From: Klebsiella phage KPN8
DNA length: 64,000 nt
Sequence record: OP079919.1
Reading direction: 5' to 3' (one strand)
The notes beneath the pieces were generated by a model, which was given only the letters and a program-made list of their open reading frames with translations, did not search any database and was not told the DNA's origin. How positions within the stretch are numbered: position 1 is the stretch's first letter; each line of letters begins with the position of its first letter. The position numbers and the translations under genes were made by a program. Below are positions 22,333 through 56,895 of the stretch, piece by piece.

Positions 22333-22677
22333 ATGAATCCATTTAACATTTATTTTTCTGCTTCTCCCCTGGGGTCCGCTATAGGGTTAGCGATCTTGCT
22401 AGTCCTTGGGTGGTTTTTTATTTACCGCAGCCCTACGGTGATTAACCAAGTTATCGGTAAACAGAAACGCGTCTACGTTGTTTTGTTCGTCCTGGTATTT
22501 TTTATCGGGAGTTGTTTTAATATAGGTACTCGGCAAGCTGAGCTTAATCGTTCTCAGTTCGACACCCAGATGAACACTGAGATCATCAAGAAATCACCTA
22601 CCTCCACGGAAGTCTTCGATGCCCGTGGTAACTTTAATCAAGCGTTAGATAAAGCAAAAAAGGAAAATGAACAATGA
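22333..22677 (+). CDS. membrane protein (114 aa, 2 TM), possible partner of SPFH protein
   Basis: two hydrophobic helices; ATGA overlap with SPFH gene. Confidence 0.55.
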   Translation: MNPFNIYFSASPLGSAIGLAILLVLGWFFIYRSPTVINQVIGKQKRVYVVLFVLVFFIGSCFNIGTRQAELNRSQFDTQMNTEIIKKSPTSTEVFDARGNFNQALDKAKKENEQ

Positions 22678-23540
22678 AGAAACTTTTCTCAATTGTGGGA
22701 TTAGTGATGATTGCAACTTTACTCTCTGGATGCGGTCAGATTGTAGAACCTGGTTTTAAAGCCAAGTTCCTTTCTTCCAGCGGTTACAGTAACGAGATCA
22801 AGGAGCCGGGTAAATATCAAGTTTGGTGGGGCGAGAAGTTGATTAAACTTGATACCTCGACCAAAGCGATATCCATTCCTCTCACTGTTAAGATGGCGGA
22901 TGAAATGGATTTATCCTTTAGCGTTAACTTCCGTACCCGAGTCGGGGGTAACGATAAAGTCCTGAACGCCATGTTTAACGACATTCGACCTCAGGATACC
23001 GATAAGGGTCTGATCATCTCCTTAGATCAGGTATTCTCGGTTTACGGTAATGACGTAGTGAGTAACGTTGCTCGTTCCGTAGTGGGGAAATACAAAGTCA
23101 GTGAGGTCTCTAAAAACTACGACACGATCAACGAGCAACTTCAGGCTAAGTTAATCGAAGCGATGAAGAACAACCCGCTGGAAGTGTCCAACGTGACCGT
23201 CGCTAACATTACCTGGCCTAAAGTCATTACTGACGCCATCGAAAAGCAACAAGAACGTGAACTGGCAATCAAGACAGAAGAAAACCAGCAAGCGATAGAA
23301 ATGGTTAAACGCACTAACCAGCTCAAACTCGCCGAAGCTGACCGAGAGATCGAACTCACTCGAGCGAGAACCCTGCGAGATCAGAATGCCATTACCGCCG
23401 ATGGCTTAAGCGATAAACTCATCGCTTATAAAGCGTTAGAGGTTCAACAATCCATGACAGATAACAAGTCGGCGGTGTTTGTCCCTTATGAAGCGTTCAA
23501 TGCACCCGGATTGTCCAACCGCATCTTTAGTGCCAAATAA
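22674..23540 (+). CDS. SPFH/band-7 (HflC/prohibitin-like) lipoprotein
   Basis: lipobox LLSGC; band-7 core plus EQQERELAIKTEENQQAIEM coiled-coil; 288 aa. Confidence 0.65.
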   Translation: MKKLFSIVGLVMIATLLSGCGQIVEPGFKAKFLSSSGYSNEIKEPGKYQVWWGEKLIKLDTSTKAISIPLTVKMADEMDLSFSVNFRTRVGGNDKVLNAMFNDIRPQDTDKGLIISLDQVFSVYGNDVVSNVARSVVGKYKVSEVSKNYDTINEQLQAKLIEAMKNNPLEVSNVTVANITWPKVITDAIEKQQERELAIKTEENQQAIEMVKRTNQLKLAEADREIELTRARTLRDQNAITADGLSDKLIAYKALEVQQSMTDNKSAVFVPYEAFNAPGLSNRIFSAK

Positions 23541-23550
23541 TTAACAATTA

Positions 23551-23590
23551 ATCTGGTTGGGCTCATCCAACCAGATTACCTTTACTTTAG
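23551..23590 (+). terminator. intrinsic terminator-like hairpin (ATCTGGTTGG-gctcat-CCAACCAGAT)
   Basis: 10-bp stem; moderate T content after. Confidence 0.5.
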
Positions 23591-23603: not shown

Positions 23604-24167
23604 ATGATCAATTGCTTGAGTGCCAATGAGTCAGAATTGTTTAAAAAGCAATGGAACGAATACGTAGAGGAAGGGCTTCCCGGACTCGATGAAAGAATGA
23701 AGGGCCCGATGCTGATCCTGAACGCAATACCTGGGGTAACGACCCGATTTTGTTGTTCCGGTCATACCTTTGAAGAAAGGCTATCATCTCACCCGACCAA
23801 AGTTTATTCTCGAGTACAGAAAAGGAATTTCATTTTTGTTGTTGAGGTGGCGCACCCAACCATTTTTTCAGTATTTGATAAGTTCTTTAAATCTTTAGAT
23901 GAGGACGAGTTTATTTTCTGCCGACCTTCTCTAGAGACCACTCTGCTTAAGAAAAACTTTGGTGGTCGTGAAGTATATCCGGTTTGGGTATTCGAAATGA
24001 ACTGGGTTTACGAACTTACCGAGGAGGAAAAAACAAAAGGGAGAGACGAGGTTCAAAAAGAACTGTGGGAGAGACTCCTCAGAGAACTTTTCCTTATTAC
24101 CTCCCCTGAAATTCGCAACGAATATTATTCCAGGTCGGTTTTTACTCATCCCCATCAACCTAGCTAA
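23604..24167 (+). CDS. hypothetical protein (187 aa), upstream of nadR
   Basis: TTTACTTTAGGAAAAAAAATATC-ATG. Confidence 0.65.
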   Translation: MINCLSANESELFKKQWNEYVEEGLPGLDERMKGPMLILNAIPGVTTRFCCSGHTFEERLSSHPTKVYSRVQKRNFIFVVEVAHPTIFSVFDKFFKSLDEDEFIFCRPSLETTLLKKNFGGREVYPVWVFEMNWVYELTEEEKTKGRDEVQKELWERLLRELFLITSPEIRNEYYSRSVFTHPHQPS

Positions 24168-24181
24168 CTAGGGACTTTATC

Positions 24182-25291
24182 ATGTTTGATATCGGCATCG
24201 TCGTTGGTAAATTCGCCCCGCTCACTCAGGGTCATATCAACCTTATCACCCAAGCCTCCCTCCAGGCTAAGAAAGTTATCGTTGTGTTAAGTCACGACAG
24301 TCGCTGGTTAGCGCAACAATGTCCTCGTGATCAGAAGGCGTTGACGTTCACCAACCGTCTTCGTTGGTTACAGCAGCATTACGCCGATTCTGACCATATT
24401 GATATTAAATATATCATCGAAGATGACATCCCGGAATTCCCCAACGGATGGAGCGCTTACTGTAACCTCCTCAGGAAGATCTACACTGAGGAACAGCACA
24501 AGAAATATAAAGGAATCGGATCAGTCGACAACACTCGTCGGATTGCTCAGACCGTAGCCATTTTCAGTAGCGAAATCGATTACGATAAAGGCTACGAGGA
24601 GCATCTTCCTGAAGTCAGTCACGTCGTCGTTGACGCGCATCGTACGGCGGTTCCAATTAGCGCGACTAAAATTCGTGAGAATCTTTACGCCAACTGGGAA
24701 TACCTCCCTTCTATTGTTCGTAAGGACTACACCAAACGGATTGTCATCCTCGGTCAGGAATCTTGCGGTAAAAGTGTCATGGTCAAGAATCTGGCTAAGA
24801 TGTTTAATACGTCCTGGGTAGAGGAGTACGGTCGGACGTATTGTGAAACAGAGCTCTGTGGTTCAGAATCGACACTCCGTAGCGATGATTATCCTATTAT
24901 CGCTTATCGCCATAAGGAGCTGGAAATCCAGGCCATGCGCTCAGCCAATCGTATCTGCATCGTGGATACGAACGCGTTCATTACTGAATACTACCATCGG
25001 TTGTATGAAGGAAAACCTAACCGGATCGTTTCCGCAATTGCTGCTGAGGAAAACTACGATTTAGTTATCGTACTCAAGCCTACAGTGCCGTGGGTCGACG
25101 ACGGCCTTCGTAGTAATCCCGAAAGACAACGCACGACTGAACTATTTAATCTCATGTGTCTGGAGTTCCCTAATCAGCTCCCGGGAGGAAGAACGTTCTA
25201 TATTTCTTCCCCTGATTACAAAGTTAGGTTCGATCAGGCTTACGAGATTATCAAAACCTTTACCCAGCGTGTTAACTCAGGTGAATTTTAA
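24182..25291 (+). CDS. nadR: bifunctional NMN adenylyltransferase / ribosylnicotinamide kinase (NadR-like, no HTH domain)
   Basis: N-terminal GIVVGKFAPLTQGHINLI (GxFxPxHxGH NMNAT motif); C-terminal ILGQESCGKSVMVKNLA Walker A of RNK domain; 369 aa. Confidence 0.85.
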   Translation: MFDIGIVVGKFAPLTQGHINLITQASLQAKKVIVVLSHDSRWLAQQCPRDQKALTFTNRLRWLQQHYADSDHIDIKYIIEDDIPEFPNGWSAYCNLLRKIYTEEQHKKYKGIGSVDNTRRIAQTVAIFSSEIDYDKGYEEHLPEVSHVVVDAHRTAVPISATKIRENLYANWEYLPSIVRKDYTKRIVILGQESCGKSVMVKNLAKMFNTSWVEEYGRTYCETELCGSESTLRSDDYPIIAYRHKELEIQAMRSANRICIVDTNAFITEYYHRLYEGKPNRIVSAIAAEENYDLVIVLKPTVPWVDDGLRSNPERQRTTELFNLMCLEFPNQLPGGRTFYISSPDYKVRFDQAYEIIKTFTQRVNSGEF

Positions 25292-25987
25292 ATGAAAGAA
25301 CTTTTTAGCGTAATCTATACTGATTTCCAGAGCGGATGGAGTCGTAAGGAATGGCTGTGGTTAGTCGTAGCCGTCTCGGCTGTTGTAGTTGGGAGTATCT
25401 CCGCTTCGCCACTGGAATTCTGGGCGGGTATATTCAACGTCGTCTGCGTTATTCTTGTTGCTAAAGGTCGACTCTCCAATTACTATTGGGGACTATTAGG
25501 GGTGGTTCTCTACGCGATCGTTTCCTACAAGCAACAACTCTACGGCAACATGGCGCTTAACGTCATTTACTTTGGATTCCAATTCTGGGGTATTTACGAA
25601 TGGCGTAAAACATTGCTGAATAAGACTGATGCTGGCGTTGACGTATCCGTTAAAAGACTGTCACTTCTCCAGTTCCTTCAGATGACGTTCGTTGTTTTGG
25701 CGGGGACCTTTGCAGTCAGTTTGTTCCTTCGTCATATCGGGGATAGCTCACCTGTATTAGATGCGTTTACGATGGTAGCGAGCTTAATCGCTATGGGCTT
25801 GATGGTTAAACAGTATTCCGAACAATGGTTACTCTGGATACTGGTCGATATCGCTTCTATTTACATGTGGGTCATTCCTGCTTTAGACCAACCTGGTTCT
25901 TGGTCCATGGTAGCGATGTGGACGGTCATCACCGGTAACGCGCTGTACGGCGCTTACATGTGGTTTATTGTTAAGATAAATAAATAA
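25292..25987 (+). CDS. pnuC: nicotinamide riboside transporter PnuC
   Basis: 231-aa polytopic membrane protein; EQWLLWILVDIASIYMW matches PnuC ENWLLWVIINVISV; adjacent to nadR. Confidence 0.85.
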   Translation: MKELFSVIYTDFQSGWSRKEWLWLVVAVSAVVVGSISASPLEFWAGIFNVVCVILVAKGRLSNYYWGLLGVVLYAIVSYKQQLYGNMALNVIYFGFQFWGIYEWRKTLLNKTDAGVDVSVKRLSLLQFLQMTFVVLAGTFAVSLFLRHIGDSSPVLDAFTMVASLIAMGLMVKQYSEQWLLWILVDIASIYMWVIPALDQPGSWSMVAMWTVITGNALYGAYMWFIVKINK

Positions 25988-26012
25988 TTCCGATAATAGA
26001 GGATAAAATATC

Positions 26013-26714
26013 ATGCGTGAGAACTATGACATTAATGCCACTTCAGACGACGTCTTCTTTAATCACTCTAAATCATTTAAGCTGGTGAGCAAAGCGATTA
26101 AGAAGATCAGTTCAGCAAAATGGGAGGGGGTTTTTAGTGACCCTACCCAGAATGCTGCCCGTGGGTATGATGAAGGCCGGTTCGATAACATCCTCCGCGC
26201 AATGTATTCTGAAGATTTGGCGAGGGCCTTGGACTTTGCTATTCATCGCAACGAGATTGCCCGAATAGATATCGCCATCATGATGATGAAACCTGAAACC
26301 AAAATCGATTACCATTTTAGGCACGATATCCCCTATCGTCAATGGGGATATCTTAGTTTCCGATCTGATTTAACAATTGCCAGCGCGGATCAGCTCGACA
26401 GCAATCCCTTTTTCTTCACTACGCTCTTGCGGGAGCTCAAAAGAGCGGGGATTTACGATTACAACGTAAACGCGATCAGCGAGCTTTATCAACTTGTACA
26501 TCTGGCCTCTATCGCGCTGTCGTACACTGGTTTGAGTGGATTGGGGGAATCGGATTCCTACCAGAACGCAATCGGTGTCGCCATGCAGGTAATTCGTCGT
26601 TGGGGCGCGGGAGAGAGTTCTGAAGTTATGAGTGATCTTGATCGAGCCACTCAGATTTGGTCGCCTTCGGAATCGGACTATGTTAAGTTTTACGAAGAAT
26701 TGGTCATCGGATAA
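26013..26714 (+). CDS. hypothetical protein (233 aa), downstream of pnuC
   Basis: AGAGGATAAAATATC-ATG. Confidence 0.65.
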   Translation: MRENYDINATSDDVFFNHSKSFKLVSKAIKKISSAKWEGVFSDPTQNAARGYDEGRFDNILRAMYSEDLARALDFAIHRNEIARIDIAIMMMKPETKIDYHFRHDIPYRQWGYLSFRSDLTIASADQLDSNPFFFTTLLRELKRAGIYDYNVNAISELYQLVHLASIALSYTGLSGLGESDSYQNAIGVAMQVIRRWGAGESSEVMSDLDRATQIWSPSESDYVKFYEELVIG

Positions 26715-26813
26715 CGAAGCGTAATTAAATTTAATAGTATGGTCAGTCGACCTAGGTGAGAGTGATCTTGTAGGTTACTCTCATTCCTTTCGTAAATATC
26801 GGAGAAATAAAAA

Positions 26814-27329
26814 ATGGCTAAAGAAAACGTTGTTCGTATTCCACTGTATAATTTAGGTAATCTTTCTTGTGTAGGGTATCGAGAAGGGTGTGGGTATAAC
26901 GTTAAGGTTTATTGGGGTGATTATCTGCTGGCCTCTAAACCTAATCTCACCCAAGCACTCGACTTCGCTTATATCGGAGTTCGACTCTTCTCCCCGATTC
27001 ATAGTGAATGGTTAACCAACGATCTGCGCTTAACTATTTGTGAATCTTTGATAAAAGCCCGTTTATTAATTGATGGCAATCATAGCGTAGAGCGTTCTTC
27101 TGTTCTTTCAGAGGGATTCCTTAAACATTGGAAAACAGGTGAGTCTGGAGTAGACTATTATCTGGAAGTACGTCTTGCTAGAGACCCGGGTAAAATAGAA
27201 GACGACATCGTTCAAGTCACCTTAAAGTATGACAACGACGGGTGCAGCTTCACTCATAGCTTCAAGAAATACGCTTCCGTTTTCAACTATAAAGAACATT
27301 TAGGCCTTTTCAAACAAGTTACCCGCTGA
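26814..27329 (+). CDS. hypothetical protein (171 aa)
   Basis: GGAGAAATAAAAA-ATG; terminator after. Confidence 0.65.
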   Translation: MAKENVVRIPLYNLGNLSCVGYREGCGYNVKVYWGDYLLASKPNLTQALDFAYIGVRLFSPIHSEWLTNDLRLTICESLIKARLLIDGNHSVERSSVLSEGFLKHWKTGESGVDYYLEVRLARDPGKIEDDIVQVTLKYDNDGCSFTHSFKKYASVFNYKEHLGLFKQVTR

Positions 27330-27336
27330 GTCATTC

Positions 27337-27372
27337 TAACTCCTACTCCCGATAAGGGAGTAGGAGTTATTA
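27337..27372 (+). terminator. intrinsic terminator, palindromic family member 3 (TAACTCCTACTCCC-GATAA-GGGAGTAGGAGTTA)
   Basis: 14-bp perfect stem; identical to element at 56851. Confidence 0.7.
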
Positions 27373-29086: not shown

Positions 29087-30799
29087 ATGAACGAAGAAAA
29101 TAAAATCGCGATCGTTTCTCATGGGGAGGTTGTTGAGTTTGATCCTAACAACGCTGAGCATCGAAAGATTCTTGAGTCGGCAAATAGGAAACTTATAACG
29201 AACGAACTCTACCAGCGGGATTTAAAACGCTTTAAAGATCTGGTTTTGTTTTATCAAAGTGCGGTTAGCAAAGAAACCATCGATGATAAAATTGAGGAGT
29301 TCTTAAGGGCTACCGGGATAAGGTTGGACTATTCCGATCTGGCCATTTTTAACTACGGGTACCCGGACATAGATGGATACTTCGGTACTCTCTATAACCG
29401 CGCAATGGGGATTGAACCTCCTTCTGTGTCAGCTGATGAAAATCCGATTGTTGGACTGAAGGAGAAGAGCTTGGACCCTCAACATTCATCAACCAACACT
29501 GGCGGTGGGTTATTATACGGCATTCTGCTCCGTAAATTTAACCGTTTTATGCAGAACGTAACAGCCGACCTTTTATTATTAGTGGACGTAAAATCGTTAA
29601 CGGCACAATGCCGGATTGAGACAAACATCCTCAGAAAAATAGAGGGGTTTAATAAAGAAACAAATCTGGAACTGGATCGCGTCGGTATAGGTCGGTCAAT
29701 CGATGAAAATACGCAACCCGAGTATTTTAATGTTCTTTTCGCAGACCTAATTAAACGATCAGAAGAATTCAGAATACAGACGATCCCTCTTTCTGAGAAA
29801 ATTCGGTTTTATCAATCAGACTGTGGTGAAATCAGGATTGGCGGAATTGACAAATCTTCAGCGGATATACCGCTGGTGCTGGTTACCGATAAAGAAGGAC
29901 GGGTTCGTTGCCGTCAGGTCGGGGAACTATTGCGTGGCGACAAACCATTCCCATGTTTTATCTGTAACGGCTCGCCGGATAAAAAGGAATCAAGAAATGA
30001 ACAACCTACTGGAAGATTAAGGACAGCCTCGCGTTATTGGTACGATCGTTTCGGTCACCCTCATCTTTTAGAGTCTGGCGGGCCAATGCACGTAAACTCT
30101 ATTAAATGCGAACCGGCGCGTGGTAAAATTTTGGAGGTATCGGTCAACAAGGACCCGATTCCTTCTCCTGATCCCCGCGATGAAAGTGTAAGGAGTAAAG
30201 ATACCGTTATTCAAAACAGTATTTCGATTACCACCGGGAAAGTTAACATGCATGCGCTTGAGGCGGCATGTCGGACAATGGCCGAAAGTATGAAAGTCAT
30301 GCACCGCAAGCCCGTCTCTGATGAATTTCGCAATAAACTTTACGAGGCGCTGGCCGCCTTTTATCATCGACATCACTCTCTAGGAAATGTTTCAAGAGAG
30401 TTCCTATACGGGGATGTTATTTGCATCGAACGGTTTAAGCGGGAGTTTGGAATTGTTTTCTCCGCTAGGGACGTGGACGCTTTTCTTAATGGAGTTATGA
30501 CTATCCCTGTGTTACTCGGCAAATACGTTAGAGAACGCCATCCCGGTGAAAAGAAAATCACAACTTACTCACAATACGCTTTAGCTCTAAACACATTAAC
30601 CTCGTTATTGTGTTTGTTTCCCTCAAACGTAAGGACGAGAGAAGATATTGAACGTGCTAAAGCATTACACGTTCAATTCAATATTCGTTTTGACATTGAT
30701 ATGTCCGAAGAGGATTTCTTAGCGATTATCTATCGTCATGGCACCCCCCGCCATTTTCTCAAAAAACACGCTACCACTGAAGCCACTAAAGGTGAATAA
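29087..30799 (+). CDS. large hypothetical protein (570 aa; Cys cluster CRQ..CFICNG)
   Basis: AATTTTAGGAAATAAAATC-ATG. Confidence 0.7.
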   Translation: MNEENKIAIVSHGEVVEFDPNNAEHRKILESANRKLITNELYQRDLKRFKDLVLFYQSAVSKETIDDKIEEFLRATGIRLDYSDLAIFNYGYPDIDGYFGTLYNRAMGIEPPSVSADENPIVGLKEKSLDPQHSSTNTGGGLLYGILLRKFNRFMQNVTADLLLLVDVKSLTAQCRIETNILRKIEGFNKETNLELDRVGIGRSIDENTQPEYFNVLFADLIKRSEEFRIQTIPLSEKIRFYQSDCGEIRIGGIDKSSADIPLVLVTDKEGRVRCRQVGELLRGDKPFPCFICNGSPDKKESRNEQPTGRLRTASRYWYDRFGHPHLLESGGPMHVNSIKCEPARGKILEVSVNKDPIPSPDPRDESVRSKDTVIQNSISITTGKVNMHALEAACRTMAESMKVMHRKPVSDEFRNKLYEALAAFYHRHHSLGNVSREFLYGDVICIERFKREFGIVFSARDVDAFLNGVMTIPVLLGKYVRERHPGEKKITTYSQYALALNTLTSLLCLFPSNVRTREDIERAKALHVQFNIRFDIDMSEEDFLAIIYRHGTPRHFLKKHATTEATKGE

Positions 30800-38240: not shown

Positions 38241-38678
38241 ATGAGTTTACGTGCTTTGTATTGCGGTGGTGTTGTTAAAAATGGAATAGTGGCTTGGGGG
38301 AACCATATCCCAGTTACTCATCGAGAAACTTTCCTTCAATTTAAATTTCAACTCAAAGGATGTAAATCGGCTGGGTTCTTAGGGGACGAAGAAGGGTATT
38401 TGAAAATTTATGGTAAGAGTATTAGTCTCGGTATCGAGGCTAATGATTTTACTAATAAACGAATCAGGGCGGGTCAAGACAACTACCGGTTCTTCCGTTG
38501 CATGGTGACCGTAGGTAACTACGAATTCCCGTTATTATTTTGCGGAACTTACGAACCTGAGTTCTTTGAGTTACGTAAGGAAATCACCAGAGACGAGCTT
38601 GGCGATGCGTTAAGTCAGCTCGAACAACTGGGTTGCAATTATGTCAGCAACGATCGCAGAACCGTTAACTGGCTTTAG
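38241..38678 (+). CDS. hypothetical protein (145 aa)
   Basis: TAAGGATTCGAT-ATG. Confidence 0.6.
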   Translation: MSLRALYCGGVVKNGIVAWGNHIPVTHRETFLQFKFQLKGCKSAGFLGDEEGYLKIYGKSISLGIEANDFTNKRIRAGQDNYRFFRCMVTVGNYEFPLLFCGTYEPEFFELRKEITRDELGDALSQLEQLGCNYVSNDRRTVNWL

Positions 38679-38687
38679 GAAAATGAA

Positions 38688-39911
38688 ATGTTCGAATATC
38701 TCATTCAGATAAATCAGGTTCTCTCTTCTGTCCCTATTATCGGTGGGAGTTTAGCGGTAGCCTTAGGCGGCGGGATCATTGCCGCCTTCTGGAAAGGTCC
38801 AGCGTTACTCTCGAGGATTTTTAACTCCACTGTTGTGGTTTCCTTCACTCTTAATAACTCAGGGTGGGGCAATAATACCAAGCACTACATTGCGTTTATT
38901 AAATGGTTTAACCGTTCAGATATTCTTAAGATAACGCGATCTACTGGTTACGAGGCCGTTTACGACAGCTCTGGTAAAGGGCCTAGTGTCGGCAGTCATT
39001 TATTTCGATTTAAGAATAAATGGTACTATCTCAAAATCAAAGAACTCCCTTCTACGGGAAGCGAGCGTGAGAAGAAAGAGATATGTATAAAGACGTTAGG
39101 GTGTTCTGTCAGCATTTTCGACGATCTCTTCGAGGCCTTTAAGGATAAGACGGATGACGACGGAGAACTCAAAGTAAAACGGTTCAGGGACAATTACTGG
39201 TACGACGCCTGTCTTCTCAGCAGAAGGTCGTGGGATACCGTCATCTTAAACAAAGAAAAGAAGGTGGAAATAGTCGAACTCATCGAAGAGTTTTACGCGT
39301 CGAGGGAGTGGTACCGAGAAAGAGGAATACCGTATAAACTCGTTATTGTTTTGTACGGCCCGGCCGGGACGGGTAAGAGTACTGTTATCAAAGCGTTAGC
39401 ACGCTTGTTTAACAAAAACCTTAACCTCATTTATCTTCACCAAATGACGGATAACACCTTCCCGGCCAGCATAGAGACGGTAGAGCAAGATTCTTTTATT
39501 GCCATAGAGGATTTTGATACGGTTTCTTCTATAGGGTCGAGGACCAAACCTAAGGAGGAAAAAGATCCGTTCCAAATAGACCTTTCAGACGGAGGATTAA
39601 ACCTGACCACTGTTTTAAATACATTGGATGGGATCGCCGAATTGAATGGTCAGGTCATCTTTATGTCAACCAACCATCTTGAAAAGATCGACAGTGCGCT
39701 GATCAGAACGGGTAGGGTGGATGCAAAAATCCACATCGGGTTTTTAGGTAAAGAAGAGGTCGGAGACTTTATTCAAATGATGTATCCCGGAACAGAAACT
39801 GATTTGGATTTTGTTACAGAAATCTCTGGGTCGGATCTTCAGTCGTATGCGTTAGCCAACAAAAGAAATTCGGAAGGTTTCTTAAAAGAGCTTAAGGACC
39901 ATTTTAAATAA
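38688..39911 (+). CDS. Bcs1-like AAA+ ATPase with N-terminal transmembrane segment
   Basis: TM PIIGGSLAVALGGGIIAAFW; Walker A YGPAGTGKST; IEDFD Walker B; LNTLDG...IFMSTNHLEKIDSALIRTGRVDAKIHIG matches BCS1 second region of homology. Confidence 0.8.
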   Translation: MFEYLIQINQVLSSVPIIGGSLAVALGGGIIAAFWKGPALLSRIFNSTVVVSFTLNNSGWGNNTKHYIAFIKWFNRSDILKITRSTGYEAVYDSSGKGPSVGSHLFRFKNKWYYLKIKELPSTGSEREKKEICIKTLGCSVSIFDDLFEAFKDKTDDDGELKVKRFRDNYWYDACLLSRRSWDTVILNKEKKVEIVELIEEFYASREWYRERGIPYKLVIVLYGPAGTGKSTVIKALARLFNKNLNLIYLHQMTDNTFPASIETVEQDSFIAIEDFDTVSSIGSRTKPKEEKDPFQIDLSDGGLNLTTVLNTLDGIAELNGQVIFMSTNHLEKIDSALIRTGRVDAKIHIGFLGKEEVGDFIQMMYPGTETDLDFVTEISGSDLQSYALANKRNSEGFLKELKDHFK

Positions 39912-52318: not shown

Positions 52319-52365
52319 CCTCTACCCACGTGGGTAGAGGAATAATAACGCTTTTTTATTTTTTA
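52319..52365 (+). terminator. terminator hairpin (CCTCTACCCAC-GTGGGTAGAGG) with downstream T-run
   Basis: 11-bp perfect stem; T6/T6 runs 11 nt downstream. Confidence 0.55.
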
Positions 52366-52443
52366 AGGTTATCTCACTCATGGCTAAAATCTATTTCTAT
52401 TACTCCTCTATTGTATAGTAGAAACTCTTATGGGGAAATAGAA

Positions 52444-53412
52444 ATGTCGAAAATTAGTGGTTACAAAGAACATCCGGTAATAAAAAACCTTTTCATCCAT
52501 CCTACGGAAGATAATCACGTCCTGTATGTTAGGAAGAAAAAAGTATCTCGGATAAAGACCCATGTCGGTAAACGCGGATACGTTATTTTTACCATGTGGT
52601 TAAATGGGAAATCCAAGGGTTTTCGCTTCCACAAATTGAAAGCCGAAACGTATCTCAAGAAACCCAGTTCAGACCGCACCCTAGTCGTAAATCATAAGGA
52701 CCATGTTAAGATCAATAACGATCTCGATAACCTAGAATGGGGGACTCAGAAAGAGAATGTCGATCATTCATTAAATATCCGTCAAAAGCTTTGTCCTCTC
52801 TATCGGATAATGGATTTAACTACGGGGAGATGGTGTACAGCCGGTAGTCGTAAAGGGGTAATCGAAATGCTAGCTTGTACCCAACGACAACTCTCTAACC
52901 ATATTAAAGACCCTCGCTATCCATTGCTATTCAAGTGGGAAGTAACAAGGGGTTTTACTTGGAATCTTTCAAAAGATGACGTGGGTAAATATAACCCACG
53001 AGAGCTTCTTCCTTATGTGGTAGAAAAGAATGGCGTCGTTTTTTACCTGGCGACATTAGCTGAAGTTGGTGAATTGACAAAGATCACTAAATACAATATT
53101 ACAGTTGCTTTGAAAAATCAACCAATTCTGCATGCCAAGGGATTCAGCATTCGGTTTATTAATTCTTATGAAGAGTGGATGAAGACTGTTATTGGGAAGT
53201 CCTATATCGATACCATGTTAAATAAAAGTAATAGAAATAAAAAACGGATCGAGGTAATAAACACTCTTACGGAGGAGAAAACCACGTTAAACGGAATTAT
53301 GGAATTAATGGAACTGACTAATTATTCACGACCTACCATCGACAGGGCAATGAAAAATATGTGTGAAGATGGGTGGGTGACTTTCAAAAATCTAAAGATA
53401 AGGTTTATTTAA
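52444..53412 (+). CDS. HNH homing endonuclease (HNH_3 type with NUMOD-like N-terminus)
   Basis: VVNHKDHVKINNDLDNLEWGTQKENVDH; start moved to ATG 52444 (MSKISGYKEHPVI). Confidence 0.8.
   Translation: MSKISGYKEHPVIKNLFIHPTEDNHVLYVRKKKVSRIKTHVGKRGYVIFTMWLNGKSKGFRFHKLKAETYLKKPSSDRTLVVNHKDHVKINNDLDNLEWGTQKENVDHSLNIRQKLCPLYRIMDLTTGRWCTAGSRKGVIEMLACTQRQLSNHIKDPRYPLLFKWEVTRGFTWNLSKDDVGKYNPRELLPYVVEKNGVVFYLATLAEVGELTKITKYNITVALKNQPILHAKGFSIRFINSYEEWMKTVIGKSYIDTMLNKSNRNKKRIEVINTLTEEKTTLNGIMELMELTNYSRPTIDRAMKNMCEDGWVTFKNLKIRFI
52444..53412 (+). mobile_element. free-standing homing endonuclease gene inserted immediately upstream of tdk
   Basis: HNH HEG abutting tdk with TAATG overlap. Confidence 0.55.
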
Positions 53413-53999
53413 TGGCTAAGGTATTTTTCAATTACGCTGCGATGAATTCGGGAAAGACTACTGGTTTGCTGCAATCAGCCTATAATTACGTTGAAAGAGG
53501 AATGTCAGTCTTACTTCTTAAACCTAAACTCGATAATAGAGAAGGAACCGATCCACTAATTAAATCAAGAATAGGATTAGAAAGCGAGTGCGTTTTTATT
53601 CCTGATGATGGGGATGAATTAGTCGACCTCATTCATAATAACAAAGGTGTTTCGGCGATATTCATCGACGAGGTTCAGTTCGTTCCAGTGCGGGTGCTTA
53701 GTGCCATCATGGTGATGTGTGACACCATGGATATTCCTCTTCTTTGCTACGGTCTCCGTAACGCTTATGACGGTAAGGGATTCCCGGGATCTGATTTCTT
53801 ATTACGTCACGCTGATAAACTGGTCGAATGCAAATCCATTTGTTGGTGCGGTAAAAAGGCCACTCACAACATGATGGTTGTCGATGGGAAAGTGGTAAGG
53901 GAAACCACATCAGGGGGAAATATGGTTGTCGGCGGTAATGAACTGTATCACGCCGTATGTCGTCAGCATTTCTTCGAAGGTAAATACAAAGACGATTAA
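53412..53999 (+). CDS. tdk: thymidine kinase
   Basis: MAKVFFNYAAMNSGKTTGLLQSAYNY..IDEVQF...LCYGLRN...CWCGKKATHNM...GGNELYHAVCRQHF matches E. coli Tdk nearly motif for motif. Confidence 0.9.
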   Translation: MAKVFFNYAAMNSGKTTGLLQSAYNYVERGMSVLLLKPKLDNREGTDPLIKSRIGLESECVFIPDDGDELVDLIHNNKGVSAIFIDEVQFVPVRVLSAIMVMCDTMDIPLLCYGLRNAYDGKGFPGSDFLLRHADKLVECKSICWCGKKATHNMMVVDGKVVRETTSGGNMVVGGNELYHAVCRQHFFEGKYKDD

Positions 54000-56850: not shown

Positions 56851-56895
56851 TAACTCCTACTCCCGATAAGGGAGTAGGAGTTATTAACTTTTTTG
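56851..56895. terminator. bidirectional terminator, palindromic family member 6 (TAACTCCTACTCCC-GATAA-GGGAGTAGGAGTTA)
   Basis: identical to 27337 element; between convergent genes. Confidence 0.75.

Follow-up and report, generated by a model that had tools for sequence, protein, structure and literature searches.

Genes and signals at the locus

The window, by which we mean the whole 64,000-nucleotide stretch of Klebsiella phage KPN8 (OP079919.1) that was analysed, derives from a Miami-like Klebsiella jumbo phage (nucleotide identity of 95% to phage YC1 and 92% to Miami). Four ORFs lie side by side in the region of interest, all of them on the + strand and all found at the coordinates given for them, with a hairpin to either side:

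23549..23578, + strand: hairpin (13-bp stem) that lies between the SPFH gene and ORF187 and is followed by a T-rich tail; Miami has a terminator annotated at the equivalent position

23604..24167, + strand: ORF187, part of the gene backbone of Miami-like jumbo phages; it has an invariant CCSGH motif, and homologs occur in phages that have no module

24182..25291, + strand: nadR, HTH-less NadR-like bifunctional enzyme of 369 aa (family matches, Bas30_86 homology, motifs)

25292..25987, + strand: pnuC, predicted PnuC-type nicotinamide riboside (NR) transporter of 231 aa (PF04973, TIGR01528, Bas30_87 homology)

26013..26714, + strand: ORF233, an orphan gene 25 nt 3' of pnuC, with homologs confined to Miami-like phages

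27337..27369, no strand assigned: perfect palindrome, a terminator-like hairpin after ORF171 (self-complementary blastn match; a terminator is annotated at the Miami equivalent)

The two central genes are already annotated as nadR and pnuC in the records of phages Miami, YC1 and BUCTxx100. They abut as TAAATG, just as originally described, the nadR stop codon (TAA, 25289-25291) being followed without a gap by the pnuC start (ATG, 25292-25294). The first hairpin is likely the terminator of the upstream unit and would therefore set the 5' limit of the unit that bears the module, and the co-directional block ORF187-nadR-pnuC-ORF233-ORF171 ends, on its 3' side, at the palindrome. Because a sigma-70 promoter scan of the module region gave 11 matches, no better than the 9.8 obtained in shuffles, we claim no promoter. 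Enzymes of the NARP1 or NARP2 type (Nampt, Nudix, Adps/Namat) were not found among the 20 larger ORFs of the window that were scanned, nor are any such enzymes annotated in the parts of Miami and YC1 that correspond to the window.

The NadR-like enzyme

The product of nadR had been predicted to be a NadR lacking the helix-turn-helix (HTH) domain and combining an NMN adenylyltransferase (NMNAT) domain with an NR kinase domain, and every part of that prediction was borne out by family models and motifs. Pfam matches were to AAA_28 (1.5e-28) and CTP_transf_like (7e-5), the protein matched phrog_3462 at 7e-126, and the NCBIfam NadR model PRK08099 was matched with 253 bits, above its cutoff of 201, over model positions 65-405 only. 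As positions 1-64 of that model are unmatched, we conclude that the N-terminal HTH is absent and that this is a NadR-family enzyme rather than the NadR regulator; in addition, no HTH family of Pfam matched the protein and there is no in-frame start upstream of nadR, the protein beginning directly at its GKFAPLTxGH motif. The quoted adenylyltransferase motif, GKFAPLTQGHINLI, occupies residues 9-22 and includes the TxGH of the N-terminal domain (T15-H18), whose ISATxxR motif lies at residues 159-165, while the Walker A sequence GQESCGKS is found at residues 191-198 (G191-S198) in the C-terminal ribosylnicotinamide kinase domain.

The closest experimentally studied relative is Bas30_86 of the T5-like Escherichia phage TrudiRoth, to which the KPN8 enzyme aligns end to end (57% identity, 369 aa, E = 1e-159). 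The best PDB match, 9x6f/9x6h (6e-138), has a chain of 357 residues and bears the deposited name nicotinamide-nucleotide adenylyltransferase; it is very probably the Bas30_86 crystal structure because the aligned sequence reads identical to that of TrudiRoth Bas30_86. The match to Haemophilus influenzae NadR (1lw7) was 1.6e-52. In a MAFFT alignment, all the Bas30_86 residues named in the mutant set of PMC13464706 were identical in the KPN8 protein (K10, F11, S37, E80, P84, G89, F110, S112, D115, V139, I141, E230 and D275). The modelled NR-pocket residue K163 was also kept, as were TxGH, ISATxxR and Walker A, and with them the catalytic His and Walker A residues whose absence would have counted against the original prediction. 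Compared with Bas30_86, the kinase domain shows conservative swaps at two modelled NR-pocket positions (R167K and K168R) and the NMNAT domain has an 18-aa insertion at about residues 104-121.

The PnuC transporter

The claim that the second gene encodes a bona fide PnuC was likewise upheld, albeit with a different Pfam family than the one first named: it is PF04973 (NMN_transporter), not PF02592, that matches, at 4e-43 and 147.8 bits (cutoff 27.3) over model positions 1-173 of 175. The protein also passed the equivalog model TIGR01528 (129.4 bits; cutoff 42.45), so that both members of the pair exceeded curated cutoffs, and it matched phrog_1880 at 7e-53. Its residues 14-225 match the structure of Neisseria mucosa PnuC (4QTN; E = 1.3e-33), and it is 44% identical to Bas30_87. 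Two of the three NR-binding residues of Bas30_87 are kept in the MAFFT alignment (N45 as N49 and Q94 as Q97). The third, N180, is an aspartate (D186) in KPN8, and an aspartate is found here in all four Miami-like PnuCs. Since NR binding was abolished in the alanine mutant of N180 (PMC13464706), substrate affinity or specificity could differ in the KPN8 transporter. The NR-binding residues of Bas30_87 are not strictly family-defining, as most members of the pnuC family have Gly or Ser at the N45 position.

Distribution, selection and loss of the pair

The pairing of these genes extends well beyond the Miami-like phages. Of the pnuC loci sampled, 24 of 25 viral and 48 of 57 cellular ones had nadR within a few kb, each gene is carried by some 800 phage records (nadR by 792, pnuC by 815), and pnuC-nadR adjacency is common in Bacillaceae and archaeal genomes too. 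A search of IMG/VR for related loci with the single NadR protein as query returned none, and the search succeeded with a PnuC alignment as query. Both KPN8 genes are under strong purifying selection, with dN/dS values of 0.03-0.06 for nadR relative to its relatives and 0.03-0.05 for pnuC. Even so, the cassette is accessory and dispensable, being present in some relatives and absent from others: it is missing from phiKp_32, and in the relatives L008 and L009 nadR and most of pnuC have been deleted, leaving a pnuC scar.

The flanking genes

It had also been suggested that the genes on either side, ORF187 and ORF233, might belong to the module, for example as an NR-releasing hydrolase or a regulator. 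No hydrolase or regulator signature was found in either gene by Pfam, NCBIfam, PHROGs, homolog, profile or fold searches, and the two were also compared by tblastn with 50,697 phage records. ORF187 has no Pfam or NCBIfam match and gave three matches in a word-index homolog search; its AlphaFold2 model (pLDDT 53, from a 4-row alignment) retrieved nothing from the PDB with Foldseek at E ≤ 0.001, the best value of 0.014 being meaningless. Its homologs in phiKp_32 and VB_ZK_P1 (76-78% aa identity) have no adjoining nadR-pnuC, and others occur in the jumbo phages SA002 and pEa_SNUABM_37/48; at the SA002 locus, tblastn with the four module proteins detected neither nadR nor pnuC within ~4 kb. Given its occurrence in phiKp_32, where nadR-pnuC is lacking, we take ORF187 most probably not to belong to the module.

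ORF233 has its own ribosome binding site and a dN/dS of 0.17-0.26, had no match among Pfam, NCBIfam or PHROGs families, and gave an AlphaFold2 model with a pLDDT of 45. A word-index search of 5.8 billion proteins yielded only eight homologs, all on Miami-like phage contigs, and a HMMER profile search of 1.84 billion representatives returned only its own family. The gene adjoins pnuC in Miami (tblastn) and in two metagenomic relatives and holds syntenic positions in YC1 and BUCTxx100. It is absent from phiKp_32 along with nadR-pnuC. The comparative context argues against ORF233 as a module part as well, since a divergent homolog (35% identity) has been kept in L008 and L009 despite the deletion there of nadR-pnuC.

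A probable further copy of a known NAD+ reconstitution system

A NadR-PnuC operon was proposed as a third phage NAD+ reconstitution route by Osterman et al. (2024), a Microbiome study of the same year read pnuC/nadR in jumbo phages as a means of independent NAD+ synthesis, and the system, NARP3, has since been demonstrated for Bas30_86/87 of TrudiRoth (Yan et al., Sci Adv 2026; PMC13464706). In that work the two proteins imported NR and converted it to NAD+, restored NAD+ depleted by Sir2-HerA and DSR1, and, when NR was available, rescued T7, lambda and Klebsiella phages, the two-gene pair being sufficient alone. The NARP3 survey in the same paper produced 124 hits, a single Klebsiella phage among them. 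Thus the novelty implied for an NR-based route does not hold. The two-gene system was proposed in 2024 and experimentally shown in 2026, and we consider it highly probable that nadR-pnuC of KPN8 is a further copy of it, that is, a NARP3-type NAD+ reconstitution module; the module is real and functional-looking but already known in kind.

The resemblance to the TrudiRoth system is close. Both are two-gene phage cassettes in which an HTH-less NadR (NMNAT plus kinase) directly precedes PnuC in the same order and orientation, both have an enterobacterial host, the proteins are 57% and 44% identical, all the named Bas30_86 residues are kept, and so are the equivalents of N45 and Q94. The differences are that the carrier of the KPN8 copy is a Miami-like jumbo myophage of ~250 kb rather than a T5-like siphophage, that the KPN8 PnuC has Asp for N180, that its NadR has the 18-aa insertion and the R167K/K168R swaps, that the orphan ORF233 follows pnuC, and that it was on Bas30_86/87 that the experiments were done. 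Bacterial salvage by NadR (Salmonella, Escherichia coli, H. influenzae) and PnuC (N. mucosa) relies on proteins of these two families and proceeds likewise by facilitated NR diffusion, trapping by phosphorylation and adenylation to NAD+. However, enterobacterial NadR has a DNA-binding HTH, which the KPN8 enzyme lacks and hence it has no repressor function, and the KPN8 module is phage-borne and accessory. NARP1 (Adps/Namat) and NARP2 (Nampt/Nmnat) (Osterman et al., 2024) share with it the format of a small phage operon and the purpose of rebuilding NAD+ against NAD+-depleting immunity, yet what they recycle are breakdown products inside the cell (ADPR with nicotinamide, or only nicotinamide). 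The KPN8 module, by contrast, depends on NR from outside and on a transporter in the membrane, and its enzymes are unrelated to those of NARP1.

How might the module work? Our analysis of the sequence covers gene identities, domain architecture, catalytic and binding residues, tight pairing, purifying selection and accessory nature; for NR transport, both enzymatic steps and defence evasion we reason from the experimentally tested homolog. The phage-made PnuC channel would let NR diffuse from the medium into the infected cell, where the C-terminal kinase domain of NadR would convert NR and ATP to NMN, trapping it intracellularly, and the N-terminal adenylyltransferase domain would convert NMN and ATP to NAD+. 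With no repressor domain in its NadR, and with that enzyme expressed from the phage's own genome, the route should be independent of host regulation. It could then replenish NAD+ lost to hydrolysis by Sir2-, TIR- or DSR-type defences, or simply meet the greater demand of a large phage. The close homology to the experimentally tested NARP3 proteins supports this core reading, and together with the conserved catalytic residues it favours the original proposal that a route from NR through NMN to NAD+ may counter NAD+-depleting defence.

Alternative readings of the module

What would such a phage gain from making its own NAD+? It may be that the pair is a general auxiliary metabolic module that boosts NAD+ for phage replication regardless of host defence (for redox cofactors in nucleotide synthesis or for NAD+-consuming phage enzymes), with evasion a side benefit. 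The position of the cassette in a long co-directional block with genes for DHFR, a MazG-like pyrophosphohydrolase, thymidylate synthase and thymidine kinase is in keeping with this, as are the interpretation given in the Microbiome study and the presence of the pair in ~800 phage records from very different lineages. Loss of the cassette in close relatives, however, is less typical of core metabolism than of a counter-defence gene that pays off under some conditions only, and we give a primarily metabolic role appreciable weight but well short of an even chance, while recognizing that the two roles draw on one biochemistry and could coexist. As a Klebsiella host should have pnuC and nadR of its own, any benefit of the phage cassette would depend on conditions.

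Two further departures from a plain NARP3 assignment concern the features peculiar to the Miami-like phages. If D186, which replaces the residue whose alanine mutant no longer binds NR and is fixed across all four Miami-like sequences, caused PnuC to import another pyridine or vitamin nucleoside or a related cation, then the pair would not serve NR salvage. We regard this as most unlikely: the column also holds Asp in 12 of 82 other pnuC homologs (7 of 25 viral, 5 of 57 cellular), 11 of the 12 directly linked to nadR; Asp should retain hydrogen-bonding capacity, and NR is cationic; the partner enzyme keeps every NR, NMN and NAD+ contact tested in Bas30_86; and the PnuC equivalog model was passed by a wide score (129 bits against 42). 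It also seems very improbable that ORF233, and possibly ORF187, supplies a third component, be it a regulator, an NR-releasing enzyme or a partner of PnuC. Such a role could be argued from the start of ORF233 just 25 nt past pnuC with its own ribosome binding site, from its confinement to Miami-like phages beside pnuC or in synteny, from its joint absence with nadR-pnuC in phiKp_32, and from the hairpins on either side of ORF187 to ORF171, genes that may form a single transcription unit. Against it are the ORF233 homolog retained in L008/L009 and the ORF187 genes found without the module, the lack of any homolog of either gene beside nadR-pnuC in T5-like phages, KpLz_1_41 and the 82 other loci, the sufficiency of the Bas30 pair, and the failure to find a domain, signal peptide or fold match. 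We see little chance that the Miami-clade cassette is a three-gene NARP3 variant, modulated or extended by ORF233, and/or one in which D186 shifts substrate affinity or specificity; if it were, the system might in that way be suited to a low supply of NR, or to a different pyridine nucleoside, in the surroundings of a Klebsiella jumbo phage.

Returning to nadR-pnuC as a NARP3-type module, the main value of our finding is one of annotation, in that Miami-like Klebsiella jumbo phages join the NARP3 carriers, and for their enzyme a 57%-identical homolog, Bas30_86, already provides data on mechanism, structure and defence evasion. This bears on which Klebsiella phages to select for therapy, or how to engineer them, when the target strains carry Sir2-HerA, Thoeris or DSR-type defences. 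Furthermore, the gain and loss of the cassette among very close relatives fits a counter-defence gene whose usefulness varies with conditions.

Genes of the cassette and their carrier

The four ORFs of the original prediction are all present on the + strand, with exactly the coordinates it gave.

23549-23578, strong hairpin, the 5′ bracket of ORF187 to ORF171; Klebsiella phage Miami has an annotated terminator at this site
23604-24167, + strand, ORF187 (187 aa)
24182-25291, + strand, nadR, HTH-less (369 aa)
25292-25987, + strand, pnuC (231 aa)
26013-26714, + strand, ORF233 (233 aa)
26814-27329, ORF171
27337-27369, strong hairpin, a perfect palindrome, the 3′ bracket of ORF187 to ORF171; also an annotated terminator site in Miami

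Both motifs that had been read in NadR, GKFAPLTQGHINLI and GQESCGKS, were found within the 369-aa product, and the predicted abutment is there, with the TAA stop codon (25289-25291) directly followed by the ATG of pnuC at 25292. Pfam, NCBIfam and PHROGs agreed with both family assignments. The 369-aa protein matches CTP_transf_like (residues 6-166), AAA_28 (residues 186-329, 1.5e-28) and phrog_3462, “nicotinamide-nucleotide adenylyltransferase” (7e-126), and exceeds the cutoff of the NCBIfam NadR equivalog PRK08099 (253 bits vs. 201); because that model is matched only at positions 65-405, the DNA-binding HTH is missing. The 231-aa protein matches TIGR01528 PnuC (129 bits, cutoff 42), phrog_1880 and PF04973 NMN_transporter (4e-43), the last in place of PF02592, which had been proposed as the PnuC accession and is not matched. 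Neither ORF187 nor ORF233 had a match in Pfam or NCBIfam.

DNA identity is 95.1% to Klebsiella phage YC1 and 92% to both Klebsiella phage Miami (Miamivirus, 253 kb) and Stenotrophomonas phage BUCTxx100, so the window is evidently part of a Miami-like jumbo phage. The records of these three phages already label the genes as NadR-like, ribosylnicotinamide kinase or NMN adenylyltransferase, and as PnuC-like NR (nicotinamide riboside) transporter. By tblastn, 792 of 50,697 phage records have NadR homologs and 815 have PnuC homologs, the carriers including T5-like Salmonella and Escherichia phages, ICP1 and other vibriophages, and many jumbo phages. nadR lies ≤4 kb from pnuC in 24 of 25 IMG/VR loci (found by a PnuC profile) and ≤3 kb from it in 48 of 57 cellular loci, mostly of Bacillaceae with some archaea.

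Comparison with NARP3

The original prediction presented an NR-based route as a different solution to NAD+ depletion; that same hypothesis had already been tested. Osterman et al. (2024 preprint) reported that phage NadR genes are usually in an operon with PnuC, which could be a further NAD+ reconstitution pathway, and a Microbiome 2024 paper found pnuC in 68 of 174 “NAD-jumbo phages”, with nadR clustered with it in at least one. Yan et al. (Sci Adv, 12 Aug 2026, PMC13464706) named the pair NARP3, from Bas30_86/87 of T5-like phage TrudiRoth. Bas30_87 is a trimeric NR transporter (Kd ~0.66 µM) whose NR binding is abolished by N45A, Q94A or N180A, each singly, and Bas30_86, for which crystal structures were solved, is an HTH-less NadR that takes NR to NMN and then NAD+; together they replenish the NAD+ that Sir2-HerA and DSR1 deplete and bring about an NR-dependent rescue (EC50 3.6-5.6 µM) of T7, lambda and six Klebsiella phages (PMC13464706).

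Window NadR aligns with Bas30_86 from end to end at 57% identity (E 1e-159). Its best PDB match is 9x6f/9x6h (6e-138), a chain whose aligned sequence reads as Bas30_86 does; the match to H. influenzae NadR (1lw7) is at 1.6e-52. In a MAFFT alignment every residue of the Bas30_86 mutant set is identical in window NadR: K10, F11, S37, E80, P84, G89 and, with window numbering in brackets, F110 (F128), S112 (S130), D115 (D133), V139 (V157), I141 (I159), E230 (E248) and D275 (D293). K163 (K181), modelled as an NR-pocket residue, is also kept, R167 and K168 are conservatively swapped (K185, R186), and the TxGH, ISATxxR and Walker A motifs are all intact. Window NadR differs in an 18-residue insertion at ~residues 104-121.

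For window PnuC, identity to Bas30_87 is 44%, and the match to 4QTN, the PnuC of N. mucosa, is at 1.3e-33. N45 and Q94 of Bas30_87 correspond to N49 and Q97, whereas N180 is replaced by D186, an Asp fixed in 4/4 Miami-like sequences. Among 82 other pnuC homologs, Gly or Ser predominates in the N45 column, Q97 is almost invariant, and Asp occupies the D186 column in 7/25 viral and 5/57 cellular genes, 11 of these 12 adjoining nadR. Because Asp recurs in nadR-linked homologs, we read D186 as a natural variant probably compatible with NR transport. In comparisons with Miami and two metagenomic relatives, nadR and pnuC both have dN/dS of 0.03-0.06, values indicating that purifying selection maintains them.

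The Serratia/Klebsiella phage KpLz_1_41 (305 kb; L005:5001-7046) has a NadR homolog of 64% identity with a Gly/Pro-rich C-terminal extension of 40 residues, a nadR-pnuC gap of ~145 nt, vs. abutting genes in the window, and a PnuC with Asn retained at the D186 column.

The flanking genes

Do the two flanking genes belong to the module, as had been suggested? ORF187 occurs without it. Jumbo phages phiKp_32 and VB_ZK_P1, which are related, carry homologs (76-78% aa), and more remote homologs are present in phages SA002 (Salmonella) and pEa_SNUABM_37/48 (Erwinia). The homolog in phiKp_32 is directly followed by that of ORF171, and DNA homology between phiKp_32 and the window ends at about 24109 and restarts at 26729. 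Because phiKp_32 keeps this gene without nadR, pnuC or ORF233, ORF187 is evidently a backbone gene, independent of the module.

Among 5.8 billion proteins, just eight are homologs of ORF233, and when 1.84 billion representatives were searched with a profile, nothing beyond its own family was returned. Two metagenomic relatives (L006, L007) have it 3′ of nadR-pnuC, as in the window. Two other, independent metagenomic contigs (L008, L009) have the order ORF187 homolog, pnuC remnant, ORF233 homolog (35% identical), ORF171 (98%). The remnant (504-584 in each) is 27 codons of the 3′ end, with 89% aa identity to residues 205-231 (window 25907-25987), and is a deletion scar: ~24102-25906, nadR and most of pnuC, was lost in a close relative and the ORF233-family gene kept. 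The left breakpoint is the same in phiKp_32 (about 24105). Because the ORF233-family gene survived this loss, ORF233 is, by its genomic distribution, not obligatorily coupled to the module. It is under weaker constraint than nadR and pnuC (dN/dS 0.17-0.26).

Further evidence agrees: neither ORF adjoins nadR-pnuC in T5-like phages, KpLz_1_41 or 82 other loci, and AF2 models of both are of low confidence (pLDDT 45 for ORF233, 53 for ORF187). The sole argument linking them to the module is position, that is, the spacers of 14 nt (ORF187-nadR) and 25 nt (pnuC-ORF233) and the bracketing hairpins, between which ORF187 to ORF171 may form one transcription unit. Neighboring phage genes are commonly co-transcribed, with no shared function implied. 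The Bas30 pair alone suffices (PMC13464706). We consider a three-gene or altered-specificity variant of NARP3 improbable.

Other variable sites

ORF187 (23604-24167) is a mosaic allele, with dS >1 against Miami, L006, L007 and phiKp_32; YC1 carries the same allele (96% aa). The protein of the adjoining SPFH gene is 100% identical (dS 0.07-0.10). The CCSGH motif of ORF187 does not vary, not even in the phage SA002 homologs of 30% identity, and a Foldseek search with its low-confidence model gave nothing significant. Just upstream, 22333-23540 holds genes for a small membrane protein (114 aa) and an SPFH/Band-7 lipoprotein-like protein (288 aa, Pfam 3e-17, phrog_200). Both are absent in phiKp_32, where a HigA-like gene lies directly 5′ of the ORF187 homolog, and the pair is evidently a second accessory insertion beside the NAD+ cassette.

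A 1.2-kb segment absent in YC1 (38678-39906) contains an ORF (38688-39911, +) for a 407-aa AAA+ ATPase (Pfam AAA 1e-11, weak BCS1_N); its two flanks adjoin at a single base in YC1, which marks it as a clean insertion or deletion of an accessory gene. YC1 also lacks the 1-kb segment 52412-53411, with ~32 nt shared at the junction; this looks like a homing-endonuclease insertion, the HNH_3 ORF (52330-53412, +, 360 aa) lying immediately upstream of and overlapping the thymidine kinase gene (53373-53999). ORF570 (29087-30799), without a Pfam match, varies in length: it has 566 aa in phiKp_32, 514 aa in Miami and ~297 aa in YC1, which lacks segment 29077-29975. The perfect 33-36-nt palindromic terminator-like hairpins at 27337-27372 and 56851-56885 have inverted matches elsewhere in the YC1 segment, which suggests a repeated family of intergenic hairpins in this phage group.

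Function of the pair

The kind of system, its mechanism, structure and anti-defence role are already published, and the nearest relatives in GenBank have these genes annotated, so the novelty of the original prediction was not borne out. The gene identity, architecture, conserved residues, pairing and selection that we observed fit its reading of the pathway, NR to NMN to NAD+. Particular to this copy, and modest, are its jumbo-phage carrier, PnuC D186, the 18-aa NadR insertion, the orphan neighbor gene and the deletion scar in relatives.

The main rival is a general auxiliary metabolic module for the NAD+ demand of a large phage, and the pair does lie within a block holding DHFR, MazG-like, thymidylate synthase and thymidine kinase genes. 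The cassette is gained and lost among near-identical phages, which fits a conditional, counter-defence-like usefulness, and the two readings are compatible. A NARP3-type module is very probably the best explanation of nadR-pnuC. By analogy with the tested homolog, the pair would transport NR, catalyze its conversion and evade defence: PnuC would let extracellular NR enter the cell, the ribosylnicotinamide kinase domain of the HTH-less NadR would phosphorylate it to NMN and the NMN adenylyltransferase domain would adenylate NMN to NAD+, a route that would be free of host NadR regulation and may sustain NAD+ under depletion by Sir2-HerA, DSR or Thoeris defences.
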